IMG/VR virus record: IMGVR_UViG_2563366803_000006 | Direction: 5' to 3' (one strand) | From: a virus | Lineage: Duplodnaviria; Heunggongvirae; Uroviricota; Caudoviricetes | Length of the DNA stretch: 20,368 nt | Shown here: in pieces, positions 1 to 8,329 of the stretch | How the letters are laid out: each line of letters starts with the position of its first letter | How positions within the stretch are numbered: the stretch's first letter is position 1 | Program-made: the position numbers and the translations under genes | Notes under the pieces: model-generated | Database searches by the model: none | Told to the model about the DNA's origin: nothing | What the model saw: the letters and a program-made list of their open reading frames with translations, nothing else

Positions 1-930
1 CTATGATAACCGCGCATTCAACATGGCTATCTGTTCGTCGTTCATGTCATCAATCCACATACCGTAAATTTCATACACCATCTGCGCAGTTTCATGCCCC
101 ATTTGGCTGGCTATAAATGCCGGGTTCGCTCCTGCCGTCAACAGCCAGCAGGCAAAAGTATGCCGCGTATGGTACGGATTACGGCGGCGAATACCAGCAC
201 GTTTTACTGCTGCATTCCACCTTGCCCCCAAACTGCTTACCGAGTAATAAGGTTTTTGTTTTCCGTTACACACCCTGGGCATGAAAACAAAATGCAGTTT
301 TTGCTTTTCGGTTCTGCCGTACTCCCGATGATAAAAGGTGATTTCGCTTTTGCGATGATGCCCGGTCAGTTTGTATTGCTCCTTCAGTGCTTCAAGAGCA
401 GGCTGCAGTAGTGTTACTGTCCGGATCCCGGCATTTGTTTTTGGGGGACCGAACATATCAAGTATCGTCAGGTTTCTTCTGACATTCACTATTCCCTTTT
501 CGAGATCCACATCCTCCCACGCCAGAGCTGCCAGTTCCCCGTGACGAAGTCCTGAGTAAACTGCAAATTTCCACATGTTCTGGCTCTGTCCTTTTTCACT
601 TTCCATTAATGCATTGAATTCTGTTTTAGATAACGGATCAGGCTTTATTCTGTTTCGCTGTAATTTTTTTACTCCTTCAAATGGTTTGGTTGATATAAAT
701 CCCGACTGATACGCAAAACGTAACAGCGAACAGAGCAGGGCGATATAGTTATCAACTGTGCGCACGGTTCTTCCTTTTTTGTTGGATCTTGGATTATCCA
801 GGTAAAGCGTTTCTCCATGCAGCAGTTCATTCCGGTAGTTTAAGATATCGCTATAACGAATATGTGATATCAGGGTACTTTCACAAATTATTATTCTGAG
901 TGTTTTTAATTGTGATTTCGTTTTCTTCAT
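1..930 (-). CDS. Phage-type tyrosine recombinase (integrase); catalytic domain intact, 5' end probably truncated by IS1
   Basis: 309-codon minus-strand ORF ending with TAG at 3..1. Translation carries catalytic-domain signatures (LRHGE Arg box, HTRHT His-x-x-Arg box, VYEIYG Tyr region). Frame stays open upstream of the Met at 930 as far as the IS1 end at 965. Confidence 0.85.
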   Translation of the reverse strand: MKKTKSQLKTLRIIICESTLISHIRYSDILNYRNELLHGETLYLDNPRSNKKGRTVRTVDNYIALLCSLLRFAYQSGFISTKPFEGVKKLQRNRIKPDPLSKTEFNALMESEKGQSQNMWKFAVYSGLRHGELAALAWEDVDLEKGIVNVRRNLTILDMFGPPKTNAGIRTVTLLQPALEALKEQYKLTGHHRKSEITFYHREYGRTEKQKLHFVFMPRVCNGKQKPYYSVSSLGARWNAAVKRAGIRRRNPYHTRHTFACWLLTAGANPAFIASQMGHETAQMVYEIYGMWIDDMNDEQIAMLNARLS

Positions 931-1020
931 TGTGTTTGTTGTTAACTCTGTCTCTTTAATTTTTGGGTGATGCTGCCAACTTACTGATTTAGTGTATGAT
1001 GGTGTTTTTGAGGTGCTCCA

Positions 1021-1296
1021 GTGGCTTCTGTTTCTATCAGCTGTCCCTCCTGTTCAGCTACTGACGGGGTGGTGCGTAACGGCAAAAGCACCGCCGGACA
1101 TCAGCGCTATCTCTGCTCTCACTGCCGTAAAACATGGCAACTGCAGTTCACTTACACCGCTTCTCAACCCGGTACGCACCAGAAAATCATTGATATGGCC
1201 ATGAATGGCGTTGGATGCCGGGCAACTGCCCGCATTATGGGCGTTGGCCTCAACACGATTTTACGTCACTTAAAAAACTCAGGCCGCAGTCGGTAA
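1021..1296 (+). CDS. insA: IS1 InsA (transposition inhibitor / DNA-binding N-terminal part of transposase)
   Basis: 91-aa [25 protein letters not shown]... with zinc-finger-like CxxC..CxxC and HTH region, GTG start, typical of IS1 InsA. Confidence 0.95.
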
Positions 1297-1718
1297 CCTC
1301 GCGCATACAGCCGGGCAGTGACGTCATCGTCTGCGCGGAAATGGACGAACAGTGGGGCTATGTCGGGGCTAAATCGCGCCAGCGCTGGCTGTTTTACGCG
1401 TATGACAGGCTCCGGAAGACGGTTGTTGCGCACGTATTCGGTGAACGCACTATGGCGACGCTGGGGCGTCTTATGAGCCTGCTGTCACCCTTTGACGTGG
1501 TGATATGGATGACGGATGGCTGGCCGCTGTATGAATCCCGCCTGAAGGGAAAGCTGCACGTAATCAGCAAGCGATATACGCAGCGAATTGAGCGGCATAA
1601 CCTGAATCTGAGGCAGCACCTGGCACGGCTGGGACGGAAGTCGCTGTCGTTTTCAAAATCGGTGGAGCTGCATGACAAAGTCATCGGGCATTATCTGAAC
1701 ATAAAACACTATCAATAA
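1215..1718 (+). CDS. insB: IS1 InsB frame (expressed as InsAB' transposase by -1 frameshift)
   Basis: 167-codon ORF in the -1 frame relative to insA, overlapping the insA 3' end; A6C slippery motif at 1272-1278. Confidence 0.9.
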
Positions 1719-1780
1719 GTTGGAGTCATTACCGCAAAGCTGTATCGCGAGGCGAATCAAGCGCAATTAAACTTTAATAG

Positions 1781-2047: not shown

Positions 2048-2123
<76 letters not shown>

Positions 2124-2126
2124 TAT

Positions 2127-2201
<75 letters not shown>

Positions 2202-2563: not shown

Positions 2564-2589
2564 AACCGCCATATCTGGCGGTTTTTTTT
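2564..2589 (+). terminator. Strong rho-independent terminator (candidate tR'-like late terminator or tRNA operon terminator)
   Basis: Perfect hairpin CCGCCA-TATC-TGGCGG (2566-2581) followed immediately by eight T residues (2582-2589). Confidence 0.7.
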
Positions 2590-2977
2590 ATTCCTTTCTC
2601 AGGACAAAAAAAGACACGAGCATACAGGAATACTCGTGGGACAACGTCCTTTAGATAGCAATTTGCGAGAGGGTGAAAAGTAGCGCGGTCGTCGGATTAA
2701 GACCGCGGGACAAAGTCCATGAAGAATAATAAGTATTGGCCCCTTCTGGGGACATGTTCATACTACTAAGCTTCAGAAGTGGTTTAAATCATCAAATTAA
2801 CCTTAATTTTCGATAAGTCTTATTTCATTTCTTTGCGCCACACCTGGCGCGCATCAAATAACGCCACGCAAAGGGCATCTGCGGATGCCGGTGCTTTTGA
2901 CGGGGTGTTTTTTACGGGCCGCTGGTGGCCATTTTTTGTTTCCATTACACAGCGCCCGCATCTGCGAGGTGGGGGTT

Positions 2978-3193
2978 ATGAAATCCATGGATAAGTTAAC
3001 AACAGGTGTCGCCTATGGCACCTCCGCAGGCAGTGCTGGCTACTGGTTTTTACAGTTGCTCGATAGAGTCACGCCCTCACAGTGGGCAGCAATAGGTGTG
3101 CTGGGTAGTCTGGTGTTTGGCCTGTTGACGTATCTGACAAATCTTTATTTCAAGATTAAAGAAGATAAGCGTAAGGCTGCACGGGGAGAGTAA
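2978..3193 (+). CDS. Class II holin (pinholin, phage 21 S-like) with dual-start motif
   Basis: 71-aa product [26 protein letters not shown]... with two TM segments and charged C-terminus. Met1-Lys2-Ser3-Met4 dual start. Strong SD GAGGTGGGGG directly upstream of ATG 2978. Recalled similarity to phage 21 S. Confidence 0.85.
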
Positions 3194-3197
3194 TTCA

Positions 3198-3542
3198 ATG
3201 ACTCAAAACTATGAACTGATTGTGAAAGGGATCCGCAATTTTGAGAATAAAGTTACGGTAACTTTAGCGTTACGGGACAAAAAACGCTTTGACGGTGAAA
3301 TTTTAGACCTGGACATCTCGCTGGACCGTGTTGAAGGTGCCGCGCTGGAGTTTTATGAGGCAGCAGCCAGAAGGAGCATCAGACAGGTCTTCCTGGATGT
3401 TGCTGCCGGGTTATGTGAAGGGGATGAGCAGTCACCGGAAAAGCGCCCCATAATTTTAGAGGCGCAGGGTGTGTGGATAACCTACAAAGGAAAACTGCCG
3501 GGAAGAATTACTGGTTCACTGAAGACTCCGCCGAAATGGTAA
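3198..3542 (+). CDS. Hypothetical protein inserted between holin and endolysin
   Basis: 114-codon ORF starting 5 nt after the holin stop, with a G-rich SD-like tract upstream. Soluble-looking, no recognised motif. Position matches that of unknown-function genes found between S and R in some lambdoid prophages. Confidence 0.6.
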   Translation: MTQNYELIVKGIRNFENKVTVTLALRDKKRFDGEILDLDISLDRVEGAALEFYEAAARRSIRQVFLDVAAGLCEGDEQSPEKRPIILEAQGVWITYKGKLPGRITGSLKTPPKW

Positions 3543-3600
3543 TTTCACCAGCATATTTTTCTTCCAGTAATACCGCCAGCCACTTGAAAGAATTTTGTTG

Positions 3601-3780
3601 TTACTGGGACCATTTGGGGTTGAGTGATTCAAGCTGGAGCGATGCCAGTGTTGGTTGCATTTGTTCCTTGGGAATTGAGAATGCCAGATATGAAAATGCG
3701 ACAGTAAGGGCATTTACATCATCCCGAAGCTTGGAAATGCAGTCGAGCAACTCCTGTAGAGAAATGGTGCTATTGTCCAT
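3601..3780 (-). CDS. Small hypothetical protein (59 aa), convergent with the upstream unknown gene
   Basis: ATG at 3780-3778 preceded by GAGAGGA SD-like sequence at good spacing; product MDNSTISLQELLDCISKLRDDVNAL... looks helical. Not recognisable from sequence alone. Confidence 0.4.
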   Translation of the reverse strand: MDNSTISLQELLDCISKLRDDVNALTVAFSYLAFSIPKEQMQPTLASLQLESLNPKWSQ

Positions 3781-3885
3781 AAACAATCCTCTCTATTGTA
3801 TTTAACTATTCCTTGCCTGATTCAACAGGCCGGGACAGATAAACATATCCAGGGTTCAGAAACCGATAAATCCTGATAAATATCC

Positions 3886-4383
3886 ATGAACGCAAAAATC
3901 AGATACGGCCTGTCGGCTGCCGTTCTGGCACTGATTGCCGTCGGTGCGCCTGCGCCTGATATTCTCGACCAGTTTCTGGATGAAAAAGAAGGTAACCACA
4001 CAACGGCATACCGCGATGGTTCCGGTATATGGACCATCTGTCGTGGTGCCACAATGGTGGATGGTAAGCCCGTCATACCGGGAATGAGGCTGTCGAAGGA
4101 AAAATGCGACCAGGTTAACGCTATTGAACGTGATAAGGCGCTGGCATGGGTGGAGCGCAATATTAAAGTACCACTGACCGAACCACAGAAAGCGGGTATA
4201 GCGTCATTTTGTCCCTATAACATTGGCCCCGGTAAGTGTTTCCCGTCGACGTTTTATAAGCGGCTGAATGCCGGTGATCGTAAGGGTGCATGCGAGGCGA
4301 TTCGCTGGTGGATAAAAGATGGTGGGCGCGATTGCCGCATACGTTCAAATAACTGCTATGGACAGGTTATTCGTCGTGACTAG
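3886..4383 (+). CDS. SAR endolysin (T4-lysozyme-type muramidase with N-terminal signal-anchor-release domain)
   Basis: 165 aa. N-terminal weakly hydrophobic Ala/Gly-rich segment ([17 protein letters not shown]), then E-x8-D-x5-T catalytic spacing ([16 protein letters not shown]). Sits downstream of a pinholin. Confidence 0.85.
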
Positions 4384-4415
4384 GAAAGCGCATTAGCCTG
4401 TTGGGGGATAGATCA

Positions 4416-4880
4416 GTGAGCAGAGTCGCCGCGATTATTTATGCTCTGGTTATCTGCATCATCGTCTGCCTGTCATGGGCTGTTAATCATTACCGTGATA
4501 ACGCCACCGCCTACAAAGAGCAGCGCGACAAAAATGCCAGAGAACTGAAGCTGGCGAACGCGGCAATTACTGACATGCAGATGCGTCAGCGTGATGTTGC
4601 TGCGCTCGATGCAAAATACACGAAGGAGTTAGCTGATGCGAAAGCTGAAAATGATGCTCTGCGTGATGATGTTGCCGCTGGTCGTCGTCGGTTGCACATC
4701 AAAGCAGTCTGTCAGTCAGTGCGTGAAGCCACCACCGCCTCCGGCGTGGATAATGCAGCCTCCCCCCGACTGGCAGACACCGCTGAACGGGATTATTTCA
4801 CCCTCCGGGAACGACTGGTAATGATGCAGGCCCAACTTGAAGGTGCTCAGCAATACATAACCGAACAGTGTTTAAAGTAA
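4416..4880 (+). CDS. Rz: Rz i-spanin
   Basis: 154 aa from GTG 4416 (SD-like GGGGGA upstream): [30 protein letters not shown]... with N-terminal TM helix and coiled-coil periplasmic domain. Near-identical to lambda Rz as I recall it. Confidence 0.9.
4636..4821 (+). CDS. Rz1: Rz1 o-spanin lipoprotein, embedded in the +1 frame of Rz
   Basis: 61 aa [24 protein letters not shown]... with lipobox (VVGC) and proline-rich mature region; lies entirely within Rz. Confidence 0.85.
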
Positions 4881-5017
4881 AATCTTAACTACAATATGAT
4901 TCATTTTGATGATTGTTTCATAAGGAACAGTGAAGTAAGATCTAAGAGGAGTTAAATTTTATACAGTATAATCATAATATTGCAGCAAGGTGGTTATAAT
5001 TGAAAGAATATTTAGAT

Positions 5018-6475
5018 ATGAATACATCTCATGTAAGAGTTGTTACTCATATGTGTGGGTTCCTGGTTTGGCTCTATAGTCTTTCAATGTTGCCACCAAT
5101 GGTTGTAGCATTGTTTTATAAAGAAAAAAGCCTGTTCGTTTTCTTTATAACTTTCGTTATATTTTTTTGTATTGGTGGCGGAGCGTGGTATACAACTAAG
5201 AAATCTGGCATTCAATTACGTACCCGTGATGGGTTTATTATAATTGTAATGTTTTGGATTTTGTTTTCTGTTATTAGTGCATTCCCTTTATGGATTGACT
5301 CAGAACTTAATTTAACGTTCATTGATGCTCTGTTTGAAGGGGTTTCTGGAATAACAACAACAGGAGCAACTGTAATTGATGATGTTAGTTCATTACCTCG
5401 GGCATATTTGTACTATCGGTCACAGTTAAATTTTATAGGTGGTTTAGGAGTTATTGTTCTGGCGGTTGCTGTATTGCCATTATTGGGTATTGGTGGTGCA
5501 AAGCTTTATCAGTCAGAAATGCCGGGGCCATTTAAGGATGACAAACTCACTCCCCGCCTGGCCGATACGTCACGGACACTGTGGATAACTTATTCTTTAT
5601 TAGGTATTGCTTGTATTGTCTGTTATAGACTTGCAGGAATGCCTTTGTTTGATGCTATTTGTCACGGGATTTCCACAGTTTCGCTTGGTGGTTTCTCAAC
5701 TCATAGCGAGAGTATCGGATATTTTAATAACTATTTGGTTGAGCTGGTGGCTGGTTCTTTTTCCCTGCTATCGGCTTTCAACTTCACTCTTTGGTATATT
5801 GTTATTAGCAGGAAAACGATAAAACCTTTAATCAGAGATATTGAACTTCGTTTCTTTCTGTTAATAGCCTTAGGGGTGATCATTGTTACCTCTTTCCAGG
5901 TCTGGCATATAGGTATGTATGACTTGCATGGAAGTTTTATTCATTCGTTTTTTCTTGCCAGCTCCATGCTCACTGATAATGGTTTAGCTACGCAGGATTA
6001 TGCAAGCTGGCCCACGCACACGATAGTGTTTTTGCTGTTGTCAAGTTTCTTTGGGGGATGTATAGGTTCAACTTGTGGTGGAATTAAGTCACTTCGATTT
6101 CTTATACTTTTCAAACAAAGCAAACACGAGATAAATCAGCTTTCTCATCCCAGAGCGTTGTTGAGTGTAAATGTAGGAGGGAAGATAGTTACAGATCGTG
6201 TAATGAGGTCTGTATGGAGTTTCTTTTTTCTTTATACTCTCTTCACGGTGTTTTTTATACTGGTGTTAAATGGTATGGGATATGATTTTCTTACATCATT
6301 TGCAACAGTGGCTGCATGTATTAATAATATGGGATTAGGTTTTGGGGCTACTGCATCGTCATTCGGAGTGCTTAATGACATTGCAAAATATTTAATGTGC
6401 ATAGCTATGATTCTTGGTCGCCTTGAAATTTATCCTGTTATTATATTGTTTTCAGGTTTTTTTTGGCGCTCCTAA
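5018..6475 (+). CDS. trkG: TrkG/TrkH-family K+ uptake membrane protein (prophage-borne trkG)
   Basis: 485 aa from ATG 5018; multi-pass membrane protein with TrkH-type motifs (GITTTGATV, GIGGAKLYQSEMPGP, GSTCGGIK). Markedly AT-rich coding sequence. Alternative TTG start at 5000 has a better SD (AAGGTGG). Confidence 0.9.
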   Translation: MNTSHVRVVTHMCGFLVWLYSLSMLPPMVVALFYKEKSLFVFFITFVIFFCIGGGAWYTTKKSGIQLRTRDGFIIIVMFWILFSVISAFPLWIDSELNLTFIDALFEGVSGITTTGATVIDDVSSLPRAYLYYRSQLNFIGGLGVIVLAVAVLPLLGIGGAKLYQSEMPGPFKDDKLTPRLADTSRTLWITYSLLGIACIVCYRLAGMPLFDAICHGISTVSLGGFSTHSESIGYFNNYLVELVAGSFSLLSAFNFTLWYIVISRKTIKPLIRDIELRFFLLIALGVIIVTSFQVWHIGMYDLHGSFIHSFFLASSMLTDNGLATQDYASWPTHTIVFLLLSSFFGGCIGSTCGGIKSLRFLILFKQSKHEINQLSHPRALLSVNVGGKIVTDRVMRSVWSFFFLYTLFTVFFILVLNGMGYDFLTSFATVAACINNMGLGFGATASSFGVLNDIAKYLMCIAMILGRLEIYPVIILFSGFFWRS

Positions 6476-6612: not shown

Positions 6613-7404
6613 ATGAGCGAGAAATTAAAGATAGTCTATCGCCCATTACAAGAATTGTCACCGTATGCGCACAACGCCAGGACGCACAGCCCTGAGCAGG
6701 TGGCACAACTGGTAGAAAGTATTAAGCAATTCGGCTGGACTAATCCGGTGCTGATTGACGAAAAGGGCGAAATTATTGCGGGTCACGGTCGTGTTATGGC
6801 GGCTGAAATGCTCAAAATGGATTCTGTTCCGGTCATTGTTCTGTCTGGCCTGACGGATGAGCAGAAAAAGGCGTACCGCCTGGCAGATAATCGCCTGCCG
6901 ATGAATGCTGGCTGGGATGAAGATCTGTTGCGGATGGAGCTGTCGGACCTAATCAATGCTGATTTTGATGTCTCCCTGACAGGCTTCATCCCGACAGAAA
7001 TTGATGAACTGTTGACGGATGTTTTGCCCGGTACAGGAAATGAGGAGGAGCCGTATACGACGAAAATTGATACGCCTGTTTATGAGCCGTCGGGCGGTAA
7101 ACCGGATATCAGTGAACTGTACGACGATACGAAAACGCAGGAGCTGATCAGCCGGATACGTTCGGCTTCCCTTGAGCCTGATATTGAGAAATTCCTCCTG
7201 TGTGCGGCAGAACGTCACACGGTGTTTAATTTCAGCAGAATTGCGGACTATTACGCTCACGCCCCCGCTGAAATTCAGTGTTTTTTCGAGGAGTCGGCGC
7301 TGGTGATCATTGATTATCAGCAGGCTATTGAAAATGGATTTGTCCGGATGACGCAGCGCATGGTGGAGATCATGCATGGTGGTGAGGAGGAGGAATATGC
7401 GTGA
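6613..7404 (+). CDS. ParB-like nuclease (ParB/sulfiredoxin N-terminal) domain protein
   Basis: 263 aa. N-terminal region with ParB-box-like GHGR motif (GEIIAGHGRVMAAEM), acidic C-terminus. SD AAGGA upstream of ATG 6613. Confidence 0.75.
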   Translation: MSEKLKIVYRPLQELSPYAHNARTHSPEQVAQLVESIKQFGWTNPVLIDEKGEIIAGHGRVMAAEMLKMDSVPVIVLSGLTDEQKKAYRLADNRLPMNAGWDEDLLRMELSDLINADFDVSLTGFIPTEIDELLTDVLPGTGNEEEPYTTKIDTPVYEPSGGKPDISELYDDTKTQELISRIRSASLEPDIEKFLLCAAERHTVFNFSRIADYYAHAPAEIQCFFEESALVIIDYQQAIENGFVRMTQRMVEIMHGGEEEEYA

Positions 7405-8329
7405 TGATTTTTGCGCCTTTATTCTGACTCACGGGCGACCGGACAAAGTTCTGACTTACCGGACGTTGCGTCGTGCTGGCTATACCGGGAAAATTTTTAT
7501 CGTTGTTGATGATGAAGATAAGACACGGCATCAGTACATGGCTGAATTTGGTGAACAGGTGCTGGTGTTTTCCAAAACCGATATCGCCAGTCGTTTTGAC
7601 GAAGCCGATAATTTCTGTGACCGCCGCTCAATTTTTTACGCCCGTAATGCCTGTTTCGACCTGGCAAAACTGGTCGGGTGTAAATACTTCATTCAGCTCG
7701 ATGATGATTATCACGAGTTCCAGTTTCGGGTGGATCGCAACTATGACCAGGCCTATTTTCCGATAAGGAAACTGGATGCGATCCTTTCTGAAATGCTGGC
7801 GTACTACGAATCAATACCTGCTCTTTCCATCGCTATGTCGCAGGGCGGGGATTTTCTTGGTGACAATGGCGGCCATGCTTCGTGGGTGAAACGCAAGGCA
7901 ATGAACAGCTTTATCTGTTCGGTTGATCGACCGTTCTCATTCATGGGGCGCATTAACGAGGATGTGAATACGTACACGAATCTCGGTCGCTGTGGTGAAT
8001 TGTTTATGACGATCGGTGCTGTCCAGTTAGGGCAGAAACAGACGCAGAAAAACAGCGGCGGAATGACCGAGCTGTATCTGGATTCCGGAACCTACGTTAA
8101 AAGTTTTTACTCCGTCATGTATGCGCCGTCGTGCGTAAAAATTTCACTGATGGGTGCCAGCCATAAACGCATTCACCATCAGGTCACCTGGAACAACGCT
8201 GCAGTAAAAATCCTTCACGAAAAATACAGGAAGAAGACACCCTGCATATCAATGGGGGTGACAAATGATTCCGTATTCGAAAGTCGAGTCTCTGGCAGCG
8301 TGCCGGATGACTGCACAACAAATCGCTGA
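7397..8329 (+). CDS. Hypothetical protein with GT-A-like nucleotide-sugar transferase signature (DxD-type)
   Basis: ATG 7397 preceded by strong SD GAGGAGGAGGAA and overlapping the ParB-like stop (translational coupling). Alternating beta-strand/acidic pattern (FILTHGRPD, IFIVVDDEDK, YFIQLDDDYHEF). Function inferred only from this pattern. Confidence 0.6.
   Translation: MRDDFCAFILTHGRPDKVLTYRTLRRAGYTGKIFIVVDDEDKTRHQYMAEFGEQVLVFSKTDIASRFDEADNFCDRRSIFYARNACFDLAKLVGCKYFIQLDDDYHEFQFRVDRNYDQAYFPIRKLDAILSEMLAYYESIPALSIAMSQGGDFLGDNGGHASWVKRKAMNSFICSVDRPFSFMGRINEDVNTYTNLGRCGELFMTIGAVQLGQKQTQKNSGGMTELYLDSGTYVKSFYSVMYAPSCVKISLMGASHKRIHHQVTWNNAAVKILHEKYRKKTPCISMGVTNDSVFESRVSGSVPDDCTTNR

Follow-up and report, generated by a model that had tools for sequence, protein, structure and literature searches.

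In the Qin prophage of Escherichia coli K-12, the segment essQ-ydfR-rrrQ encodes in this order a pinholin, YdfR and a SAR (signal-anchor-release) lysozyme. The locus analysed here lies within a window of 20,368 nucleotides, i.e. the whole stretch of DNA that was analysed, from a virus assigned to Caudoviricetes (IMG/VR record IMGVR_UViG_2563366803_000006), and shows the same gene order with a holin and a lysozyme each 93% identical to their Qin counterparts EssQ and RrrQ and with a conserved core of YdfR (residues 1-72). Unlike in the window, ydfR abuts rrrQ in Qin and no antisense gene is present, the C-terminus of YdfR differs, the spanins RzpQ (a DUF2514 protein) and RzoQ belong to a different family, and the lysozyme is full length (177 aa). 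Phage 21 and DLP12 (S21/EssD, R21/RrrD, Rz/Rz1) share with the window the MKSM dual start, the logic of a pinholin combined with a SAR endolysin and the embedded Rz/Rz1 pair, whereas RrrD/R21 are only 37% identical to the lysozyme of the window and neither ydfR nor an antisense gene lies between S and R. Lambda differs by having a canonical three-TMD holin and a soluble transglycosylase instead of a pinholin and a SAR lysozyme, and the DNA homology of the window to lambda begins sharply, exactly at the start codon of Rz, which is GTG in the window and ATG in lambda. The K-12 Rac prophage (rzpR/rzoR-trkG) has in common with the window an Rz1 protein that is 100% identical to RzoR as well as the downstream spacer and trkG; unlike the window, it has no holin, ydfR or lysozyme annotated, its rzpR is marked as a pseudogene and ydaW is located just upstream. 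At the level of DNA, the Rac-type prophages of the E. coli strains Yu5, KK05-19, ATCC 8739 and 1428 carry the cassette at 99.8-99.9% identity, and the phages BP-4795, mEp460 and Chlobot show the order holin-ydfR-(antisense)-lysozyme as in the window. In contrast to these strain and phage copies, in which the lysozyme and the antisense gene are full length and the DUF1367-YbcO-Q region is kept, the window has the nonsense mutations Q166* and Q60* and an IS1 element replacing the early region.

We assign positions 2,978 to 4,880 of the window to the late lysis operon of an E. coli Rac-family lambdoid prophage, i.e. to a known cassette type present in a copy that is probably silent and decaying, and we estimate the probability of this reading at roughly 0.88. 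As judged from its sequence, the cassette combines a pinholin of the phage 21 type with YdfR, a SAR endolysin and embedded spanins of the lambda type, which together constitute an already known system (Table 1). An initial annotation had described the locus as a mosaic lysis cassette. All features it described were found in place with family matches far beyond chance, and its view of a mosaic ancestry is supported by profile and pairwise comparisons; the profile searches, the transmembrane and lipobox predictions and the comparisons with lambda and the phage 21 family placed neither the holin nor the lysozyme in an unrelated family and located the expected SAR or transmembrane segments in both. 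Annotations of this cassette and of its arrangement already exist for thousands of E. coli genomes and for several isolated phages, and their occurrence here matters little. The value of the analysis lies in a corrected annotation, comprising the strand of the second gene within the holin-lysozyme gap, the GTG start of Rz and two pseudogenising stops, in a clear case of a prophage decaying through an IS1-associated deletion and nonsense mutations, and in the reminder that YdfR (DUF1327) is constant in this lysis cassette and yet has no assigned function.

Table 1. Features of the lysis cassette and of its surroundings, with positions in the window.
Feature	Position	Strand	Basis of the assignment
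Prophage integrase	1-930	-	left of IS1
IS1 element	967..1734	+	inverted-repeat ends; InsB ORF 1215-1718
tRNA-Thr(TGT)	2048-2123	+	ARAGORN and Rfam; annotated alike in relatives
tRNA-Gly(TCC)	2127-2201	+	ARAGORN and Rfam; annotated alike in relatives
Strongest terminator-like hairpin with T-run upstream of the holin gene	2564..2583	+	consensus scan only
Class II holin, phage 21 S (pinholin) family, dual start	2978..3193	+	PF04971 'Bacteriophage P21 holin S', phrog_9876, phrog_20
YdfR family protein (DUF1327), 114 aa	3198..3542	+	PF07041, phrog_406
Remnant of antisense 90-aa gene, 59 codons and TAA	3601..3780	-	phrog_2411, annotation of relatives
SAR endolysin, T4-lysozyme/GH24 type, RrrQ allele	3886..4383	+	PF00959, identity to RrrQ
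Rz i-spanin, 154 aa, GTG start	4416..4880	+	PF03245, identity to lambda Rz
Rz1 o-spanin lipoprotein, 61 aa, in +1 frame inside Rz	4636..4821	+	PF06085, identity to RzoR
trkG potassium transporter	5018..6475	+	PF02386 at 3.8e-144; annotated trkG in all relatives and K-12 Rac

The first gene of the cassette had been proposed to encode a pinholin with an MKSM dual start and two transmembrane segments, and family match, hydropathy and sequence identity all agree with this proposal. Its product matches PF04971 with an E-value of 4.8e-35 (119.8 bits at a cut-off of 26) over profile positions 1-63 of 64, both matched PHROG families are holin families, and it is 99% identical to K-12 EssD; the comparison with the phage 21 S protein was made via the Pfam family and this identity to EssD. 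The N-terminus M1-K2-S3-M4 contains the dual-start motif which, by giving rise to an antiholin that carries one further positive charge at its N-terminus, characterises pinholins (PMC9636201). Initiation at Met1 (position 2978) would give a 71-aa antiholin and initiation at Met4 (position 2987) a 68-aa holin; RNA structure at the dual start was not significant (z-score -0.38). Two transmembrane segments were found in silico, the first being SAR-like and weakly hydrophobic (residues 8-27; mean Kyte-Doolittle 0.38; G/A/S/T 12/20) and the second being hydrophobic (residues 36-57; mean Kyte-Doolittle 1.44) with the motif G40xxxS44xxxG48, and the protein ends with a charged C-terminal tail ([14 protein letters not shown]).

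For the endolysin, the match to PF00959 (E-value 4.5e-24; 85.6 bits at a cut-off of 22.3) covers residues 33-150, and the matches in the PDB are R21 (3hde/3hdf) and RrrD (4zpu), with the alignment continuing through the tail that is lost in the window. SAR endolysins are recognised by a catalytic triad of the form E-x8-D/C-x5-T, the definitive test being their release by a pinholin (PMC9239132). The enzyme of the window has the spacing E35-x8-D44-x5-T50, and its N-terminus carries the basic residues K4 and R6 ahead of a charge-free, weakly hydrophobic stretch ([17 protein letters not shown]), the Gly/Ala-rich segment at residues 8-25 having G, A, S or T at 9 of its 18 positions, a composition in agreement with a SAR segment. 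The SAR-like N-terminus and the T4-lysozyme spacing described initially are thereby confirmed, and because the SAR segment contains no Cys the enzyme falls outside the disulfide-caged type represented by P1 Lyz. Two nonsense mutations had been missed, one of them in this gene: a CAG to TAG exchange at 4381-4383 (Q166*) results in a product of 165 aa lacking the last 12 residues, the ancestral stop being the TGA at 4417-4419 (177 aa), as in the relatives. The shortened frame bears on function and not on family membership. The lost tail includes the eighth cysteine (C172) as well as residues (E, W-G) that recur in the distant R21/RrrD branch. On viral contigs, 47 of the 48 lysozyme genes that could be recognised specify a product of 177 aa and not one specifies the 165-aa form, and an exact-pattern scan of one-genome-per-species contigs gave no match to the TAG allele. 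The exact 165-aa protein is encoded on at least 18 contigs, the carriers including prophages whose Q region is intact (L013, L014 and L016) and, in L017, another lambdoid backbone, suggesting that the truncation may be tolerated. A suppressor tRNA reading the amber codon was ruled out, the tRNAs of the prophage being Thr(TGT) and Gly(TCC).

The spanins are as close to those of lambda as the initial annotation had stated. Rz matches PF03245 (E-value 8.5e-53; 178 bits) and is 93% identical to lambda Rz; its correct start is the GTG at 4416 and not the TTG at 4401, the relatives being annotated from the same GTG, and this start is preceded by a GGGGGA ribosome-binding site 7-8 nt upstream and overlaps the ancestral lysozyme stop (GTGA). 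An i-spanin is defined by a transmembrane segment at its N-terminus together with a periplasmic domain containing C99 and C152 (PMC6139136); in Rz of the window, residues 4-24 form such a segment (mean KD 2.5) and both cysteines are present. Rz1 matches PF06085 (E-value 2e-19), is 98% identical to lambda Rz1 and shows the features of an embedded o-spanin, i.e. the lipobox VVGC (C20; pattern [LVI][ASTVI][GAS]C), C29 and the penta-proline stretch PPPPP.

By analogy to the well-studied homologues, lysis by such a cassette would start with translation of the holin gene from both Met1 and Met4, the antiholin and the holin building up in the inner membrane, where the weakly hydrophobic first helix would exit the bilayer and the second helix would oligomerise to form nanometre-scale pinholes, resulting in collapse of the membrane potential. 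The lysozyme, presumably exported earlier by Sec and kept tethered and inactive via its N-terminal SAR segment, would be freed by the depolarisation and refold to the active muramidase (E35/D44/T50) degrading the cell wall, after which Rz in the inner membrane and the outer-membrane lipoprotein Rz1 would fuse both membranes. In the copy described here, the IS1-associated deletion has taken out the repressor, replication and Q-antiterminator region, and the amber codon has cost the lysozyme, apart from its last 12 residues, the stop/start overlap with Rz.

The prophage is assigned to the Rac family because trkG comes after the spanin genes. The start of trkG and the spacer preceding it are identical to K-12 Rac, forming the rzoR-trkG junction, and the position of the integrase next to ttcA is in agreement with this assignment: on contig L015, which carries both nonsense mutations of the window and the identical order integrase-IS1-holin, the genes follow each other as dbpA-like, ATP_bind_3 (ttcA-like), integrase and IS1. 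As a hallmark of the Rac prophage, trkG provides context and is outside the lysis machinery; inserted directly after the spanins and with a GC content of 0.377, it is the only clearly foreign gene nearby.

In the window, IS1 adjoins the integrase and the early region and Q are missing, which had been overlooked in the initial annotation. Homology to intact relatives restarts at position 1733, 51 bp past the stop of the relatives' Q-like gene, and therefore the whole early region including Q is absent here. Upstream of the lysis genes, the relatives have DUF1367-YbcO-DUF1133, of which DUF1133 gives a faint Phage_antitermQ match. Compared to strain 1428, about 22 SNPs were found in 17.2 kb, Q166* and Q60* being the only nonsense changes, and holin, ydfR, Rz, Rz1 as well as the head and tail genes are intact. 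Exact 61-mer matches searched in 5,426 complete E. coli genomes gave 0/1,327 genomes with the surrounding sequence for Q166* and 0/599 for Q60*, ruling out that the two nonsense SNPs are widespread polymorphisms, while the occurrence of the 165-aa protein on several contigs rules out that they are unique to this genome. We consider this copy of the cassette as probably silent and decaying on account of the lost early region, the amber codon in the lysozyme gene and the Q60* stop in the antisense gene. It speaks against silence that Q supplied in trans by a different prophage could act on the cassette.

The possibility that the cassette still works, with the 165-aa lysozyme being active and the operon being fired by read-through or by the Q protein of another lambdoid prophage, has to be weighed against the deletion of the cognate Q gene and the presence of a second nonsense mutation within the same 2 kb. 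The truncation itself can be read both ways: it falls outside the Pfam lysozyme domain, but it removes the residues shared with R21/RrrD and C172; likewise, the amber allele is retained in prophages that are complete in other respects, as well as on a second backbone, but it is rare, being absent from the complete genomes and the viral loci mentioned above. As holin, YdfR, Rz and Rz1 are intact and Rz retains its ribosome-binding site, we regard a working cassette as possible, although doubtful. Such a cassette might be kept for a host-level role, a proposal of this kind existing for the lysis genes of DLP12 in K-12.

Holin and endolysin had been described as separated by about 690 bp carrying two extra ORFs. 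The distance from the holin stop to the lysozyme start is 692 bp, in agreement with this value; regarding the two ORFs, ydfR was confirmed, whereas the second plus-strand ORF was not, the real second gene being located on the minus strand, so that the gap contains one plus-strand gene (ydfR) and one minus-strand gene encoding a member of a 90-aa family. YdfR matches the DUF1327 family PF07041 with an E-value of 8e-42 (141.8 bits at a cut-off of 25) and its gene is located between the pinholin and the SAR lysozyme genes. It is 64% identical to K-12 YdfR, the divergence starting after about residue 72, and consists of a conserved core (residues 1-73) and a variable C-terminus; the AF2 model predicts three strands and a long helix, with residues 74-114 being disordered, the AF2 models of the two proteins encoded in the gap being of moderate quality (pLDDT 61 and 77). 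Among the 80 closest viral contigs, ydfR is directly downstream of the holin gene in 76/76 loci and the lysozyme gene is downstream of ydfR in 72/72, the loci being close relatives and the counts therefore not independent. The same layout over at least 80% of the region is present in 554/5,426 complete E. coli genomes, i.e. about a tenth. Cassettes of this type normally run holin-ydfR-lysozyme, YdfR being a constant companion gene and the antisense 90-aa gene being optional. The GC content of ydfR (0.478) equals that of the holin gene (0.477), ruling out the ydfR region as compositionally foreign.

This strict synteny, together with the gap of only 4 nt between the holin stop and ydfR, which suggests co-translation, would be compatible with YdfR, and perhaps also the antisense 90-aa protein, being a dedicated regulator of pinholin/SAR-endolysin lysis, acting e.g. 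on timing or endolysin release. A precedent is the 'releasin' gp25 of Mu, an extra lysis regulator of SAR endolysins (PMC9239132). We consider this role unlikely: phage 21 and DLP12 with their contiguous S and R genes lyse without YdfR, a sequence check revealed neither a transmembrane segment nor a signal peptide in YdfR, and the non-independence of the synteny counts weakens the argument from gene order. Neither YdfR nor the 90-aa protein has a match in NCBIfam or PADLOC, no family, defence or structural match of YdfR points to a function, and our literature search on YdfR/DUF1327 found no functional work. More speculative, and in our view quite improbable, is an extension of this idea in which the slot between pinholin and SAR endolysin would be a conserved regulatory position, at which both YdfR, by means of C-terminal modules that can be exchanged, and the convergent 90-aa gene, where present, would tune lysis timing or endolysin release, and in which the rare Q166* allele, found on two prophage backbones, would reflect selection for weakened lysis in domesticated prophages.

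The antisense gene, annotated as 273 bp in the relatives, has an ancestral ORF at 3780..3508 overlapping the 3' end of ydfR by 35 bp, and a GAGAGGA ribosome-binding site is located 5 nt ahead of its ATG. Its stop Q60* results from a CAA to TAA exchange, base 3603 of the window being A and that of the relatives G. The full-length product matches phrog_2411 at 4.3e-59, and its AF2 model suggests a three-helix bundle, of which the Q60* truncation would lose helix 3; searching the PDB with Foldseek returned nothing at E <= 0.001 for this protein. In 72 viral loci with enough downstream sequence, the gene is present in 43 and absent in 29. The GC content is slightly lower in the region of the antisense gene (0.44), and it is 0.38 in the spacer to the lysozyme gene. 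The plus-strand ORF 3473-3805 was rejected as the second gene: it has no Pfam or PHROG match and gains a stop in the 87%-identical phage 783R2, in which the minus-strand ORF remains open.

The initial annotation had regarded ydfR and the second ORF as foreign genes splitting a once-contiguous holin-endolysin pair in an unusual event, which is not supported and in our view improbable: the contiguity of holin and lysozyme genes in phage 21 and DLP12, the optional nature of the antisense gene and the lower GC content of its region and of the lysozyme spacer would fit, but ydfR accompanies the RrrQ-type lysozyme in every locus examined, is found likewise in K-12 Qin, in active phages (the order recurring in BP-4795, mEp460 and Chlobot) and in a tenth of the complete E. 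coli genomes, and has the GC content of the holin gene, leaving trkG as the sole clearly foreign neighbour.

Both tRNA genes are located between the former Q gene and the lysis genes, and an Rfam search of the window returned nothing beyond these two. A candidate late promoter region (about 1940-1985) survives together with the tRNAs. The hairpin upstream of the holin gene is a candidate late-operon terminator that would be read through by the Q antiterminator.

Listing ORFs in all six frames and reading the raw sequence gave a tight group of lysis genes across 2978-4880, which were compared with Pfam and PHROG profiles (see table). PHROG agrees with Pfam on the holin, the endolysin and the Rz-like spanins and labels YdfR as being of 'unknown function'. 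We consider it very probable (roughly 0.88) that this is a pinholin/SAR endolysin cassette and that the version present here is a remnant in decay and probably silent. The functional state is the weakest part of this joint reading, it being doubtful that the cassette could still lyse cells if transcribed.

Lysis genes and the adjoining transporter gene with their Pfam matches
Gene	Position	Pfam match	E value
Holin	2978-3193	PF04971, Bacteriophage P21 holin S	4.8e-35
YdfR	3198-3542	PF07041, DUF1327	8e-42
Lysozyme	3886-4383	PF00959, phage lysozyme	4.5e-24
Rz	4416-4880	PF03245	8.5e-53
Rz1	4636-4821	PF06085	2e-19
TrkH-family transporter	ORF next after Rz/Rz1	PF02386	3.8e-144

The holin starts with M-K-S-M. 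Its first segment (residues 8-27) is weakly hydrophobic, with a mean Kyte-Doolittle value of 0.38 and 12 of 20 residues being Gly, Ala, Ser or Thr, the second (residues 36-57) is an ordinary transmembrane helix containing G40xxxS44xxxG48, and the tail following it is highly charged. These features fit the published phage 21 pinholin with its dual-start antiholin (PMC9636201) and bear out the dual-start, two-TM pinholin proposed in the initial annotation. Identity is 99% to K-12 EssD (DLP12) and 93% to EssQ. An in-frame ATG upstream at 2885 would lengthen the holin ORF to 102 aa; this extension (2885-2977) contains two terminator-like hairpins (2874-2889 and 2917-2930), the holin of relatives is annotated from 2978 and, counted on the short form, the Pfam match begins at residue 5. 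The extension is probably not translated.

The lysozyme has K4 and R6 preceding a SAR-like segment, followed by E35-x8-D44-x5-T50, corresponding to the SAR endolysin features described in the literature (PMC9239132) and to the SAR-like N-terminus and T4-lysozyme catalytic spacing recognised earlier. It can be aligned with R21 and RrrD, whose structures are solved (3hde/3hdf and 4zpu, respectively), and its identity is 93% to K-12 RrrQ (Qin) and only 37% to RrrD. Rz has an N-terminal transmembrane segment and the cysteines C99 and C152, and in Rz1, located in the +1 frame within Rz, the lipobox VVGC (C20) is accompanied by C29 and five consecutive prolines, all matching the lambda spanin criteria (PMC6139136). 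Identity to lambda amounts to 93% for Rz and 98% for Rz1, the latter being 100% identical to K-12 RzoR. The homology to lambda DNA begins exactly at the Rz start codon, forming a sharp mosaic joint. Profile matches, sequence features and lambda identity thus confirm the initial assignment of a mosaic cassette with pinholin, SAR endolysin and close relatives of the lambda spanins. The coordinates given there are right, and so is the gap size, computed as 692 bp from holin stop to lysozyme start.

The view that holin and lysozyme are unusually separated, by foreign genes, proved wrong. K-12 Qin has the same gene order (essQ-ydfR-rrrQ), and so do isolated or induced phages, among them Chlobot, vB_EcoS-783R2, mEp460 and, with an additional antirepressor gene separating R from Rz, the Stx1 phage BP-4795. 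Among the 5,426 E. coli genomes that are complete, 554 have a place covering 80% or more of window 2800-5000. YdfR relatives are encoded on at least 580 IMG/VR contigs, and among the closest 80 the holin lies directly upstream in all 76 with room upstream and a lysozyme downstream in all 72 with room downstream, counts which, the loci being closely related, describe the norm and not independent conservation. The GC content of ydfR (0.478) equals that of the holin gene (0.477). By composition, the clearly foreign gene of the region is trkG (5018-6475; GC 0.377 versus 0.47-0.52 in its neighbours), directly following Rz/Rz1 as in K-12 Rac. A role of YdfR as lysis regulator is improbable.

Of the two extra ORFs initially placed in the gap, ydfR is real and the other is replaced by a gene on the opposite strand. 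Neither Pfam nor PHROG gives a match for the plus-strand ORF 3473-3805, and it gains a stop in the 87%-identical phage 783R2, in which the minus-strand ORF 3780..3508 stays open despite 32 changed codons. Relatives have this antisense gene annotated as coding for a hypothetical protein of 90 aa. It matches phrog_2411 from end to end (E 4.3e-59), is preceded by a good ribosome-binding site and overlaps the 3' end of ydfR tail-to-tail. The family is small, comprising 63 proteins that have no Pfam domain and come almost without exception from Escherichia or Shigella, a single fragment carrying the label Pseudomonas; the AF2 model is a three-helix bundle (pLDDT 77) with no meaningful match among the solved structures searched. 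The gene is optional: of the 72 viral loci that extend far enough downstream, 43 have it and 29 do not. Some YdfR relatives (P0085, P0145, P0160 and P0110 in alignment A7) are longer, with 176-183 aa, and have a helical-looking extension after the shared '...SLKTPP' in place of the short tail. Since the antisense gene in the window also comes after this junction, the sequences suggest a recombination hot spot there.

The earlier picture left out the damage, i.e. two nonsense mutations and a lost control region. Compared with ATCC 8739, window 2800-5000 contains five differences, two of which create stops. At 3603 a coding-strand C to T change (CAA to TAA) ends the antisense gene at codon 60, removing the third helix, and at 4381 C to T (CAG to TAG) shortens the lysozyme from 177 to 165 aa. 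In alignments the lost lysozyme tail corresponds to the R21/RrrD C-terminus, with which it has E, W and G in common, and it includes C172, the eighth cysteine. Translational coupling to Rz is probably lost as well, because the Rz GTG, which in the normal arrangement overlaps the lysozyme TGA (GTGA), here lies 33 nt beyond the point where translation stops. Compared with strain 1428, about 22 SNPs are found over 17.2 kb, and these two stops are the only nonsense changes. Neither allele occurs in any complete E. coli genome with the surrounding 61-mer (denominators for the two variants, 1,327 and 599), and 47 of 48 recognisable lysozyme genes of viral contigs encode 177 aa, none 165 aa. The exact 165-aa lysozyme is encoded on at least 18 contigs, sharing the same TAG. 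Among them are Rac-type prophages whose Q region is intact (L013, L014, L016) and a different lambdoid prophage with RusA, Antiterm-type Q and Nu1-type terminase (L017; ENA ERZ27292113, contig k141_49545, 6001-6498, with two additional synonymous differences). As the same TAG recurs on other contigs, one with a different prophage backbone, the truncation may be tolerated; the allele either spread by recombination or had more than one independent origin. Both stops are found together on L015 (GCA_000408585.1) and L018, two further contigs encoding this lysozyme.

The element is a Rac-family prophage, the spacer and trkG start being those of K-12 Rac, with tRNA-Thr and tRNA-Gly upstream of the cassette and ParB-like, terminase, portal, P22-type capsid and tail genes downstream of trkG; unlike K-12 Rac, it still has its lysis and structural genes. 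An IS1 (967-1734) lies 37 bp from the start of the integrase gene (1-930, minus strand). L015 shows the same integrase-IS1-holin order, with ttcA-like and dbpA-like genes beyond the integrase, and is probably the origin of the window or closely related to it. Right of IS1, homology to intact relatives restarts 51 bp past the stop codon of a DUF1133 gene that, in those relatives, faintly matches Phage_antitermQ; the whole early region (recombination, immunity, replication and Q-like antiterminator) that the relatives still have is therefore absent, with IS1 in its place. The prophage keeps lysis, head and tail genes and cannot be a self-sufficient phage. Promoter-like and terminator-like sites, consensus matches only, survive between IS1 and the holin.

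From work on phage 21, P1 and lambda we infer a pathway for which the sequence prerequisites of each step are present. Dual-start holin and antiholin would build up in the inner membrane until pinholes form and depolarise it, the Sec-exported, membrane-tethered SAR lysozyme would be released and refold, and Rz and Rz1 would fuse inner and outer membranes. This cassette type is common and already known; what we add is small: corrected gene models, two private or rare stops and a control region lost in connection with IS1.

The tRNA-Thr(TGT)/tRNA-Gly(TCC) pair (2048-2201) belongs to the late operon, where it lies after the Q position and before the holin, and is kept in all close relatives, neither being a suppressor. 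Just upstream of tRNA-Thr, strain 1428 (L012, 3284-3296) has an extra 13 bp (GCTCGGTGATATC) relative to window position 2015, a tandem duplication of adjoining sequence present as one copy in the window. Ahead of the terminase genes, at 6613-8329, a ParB/Srx-domain gene of full length (263 aa) precedes one of 310-317 aa, the product of which carries PF20691 (TAGT) according to precomputed annotations and has the RefSeq name 'GREB1-related protein'. In K-12 just the fragment ynaK is left. The two genes may constitute a module for DNA modification.
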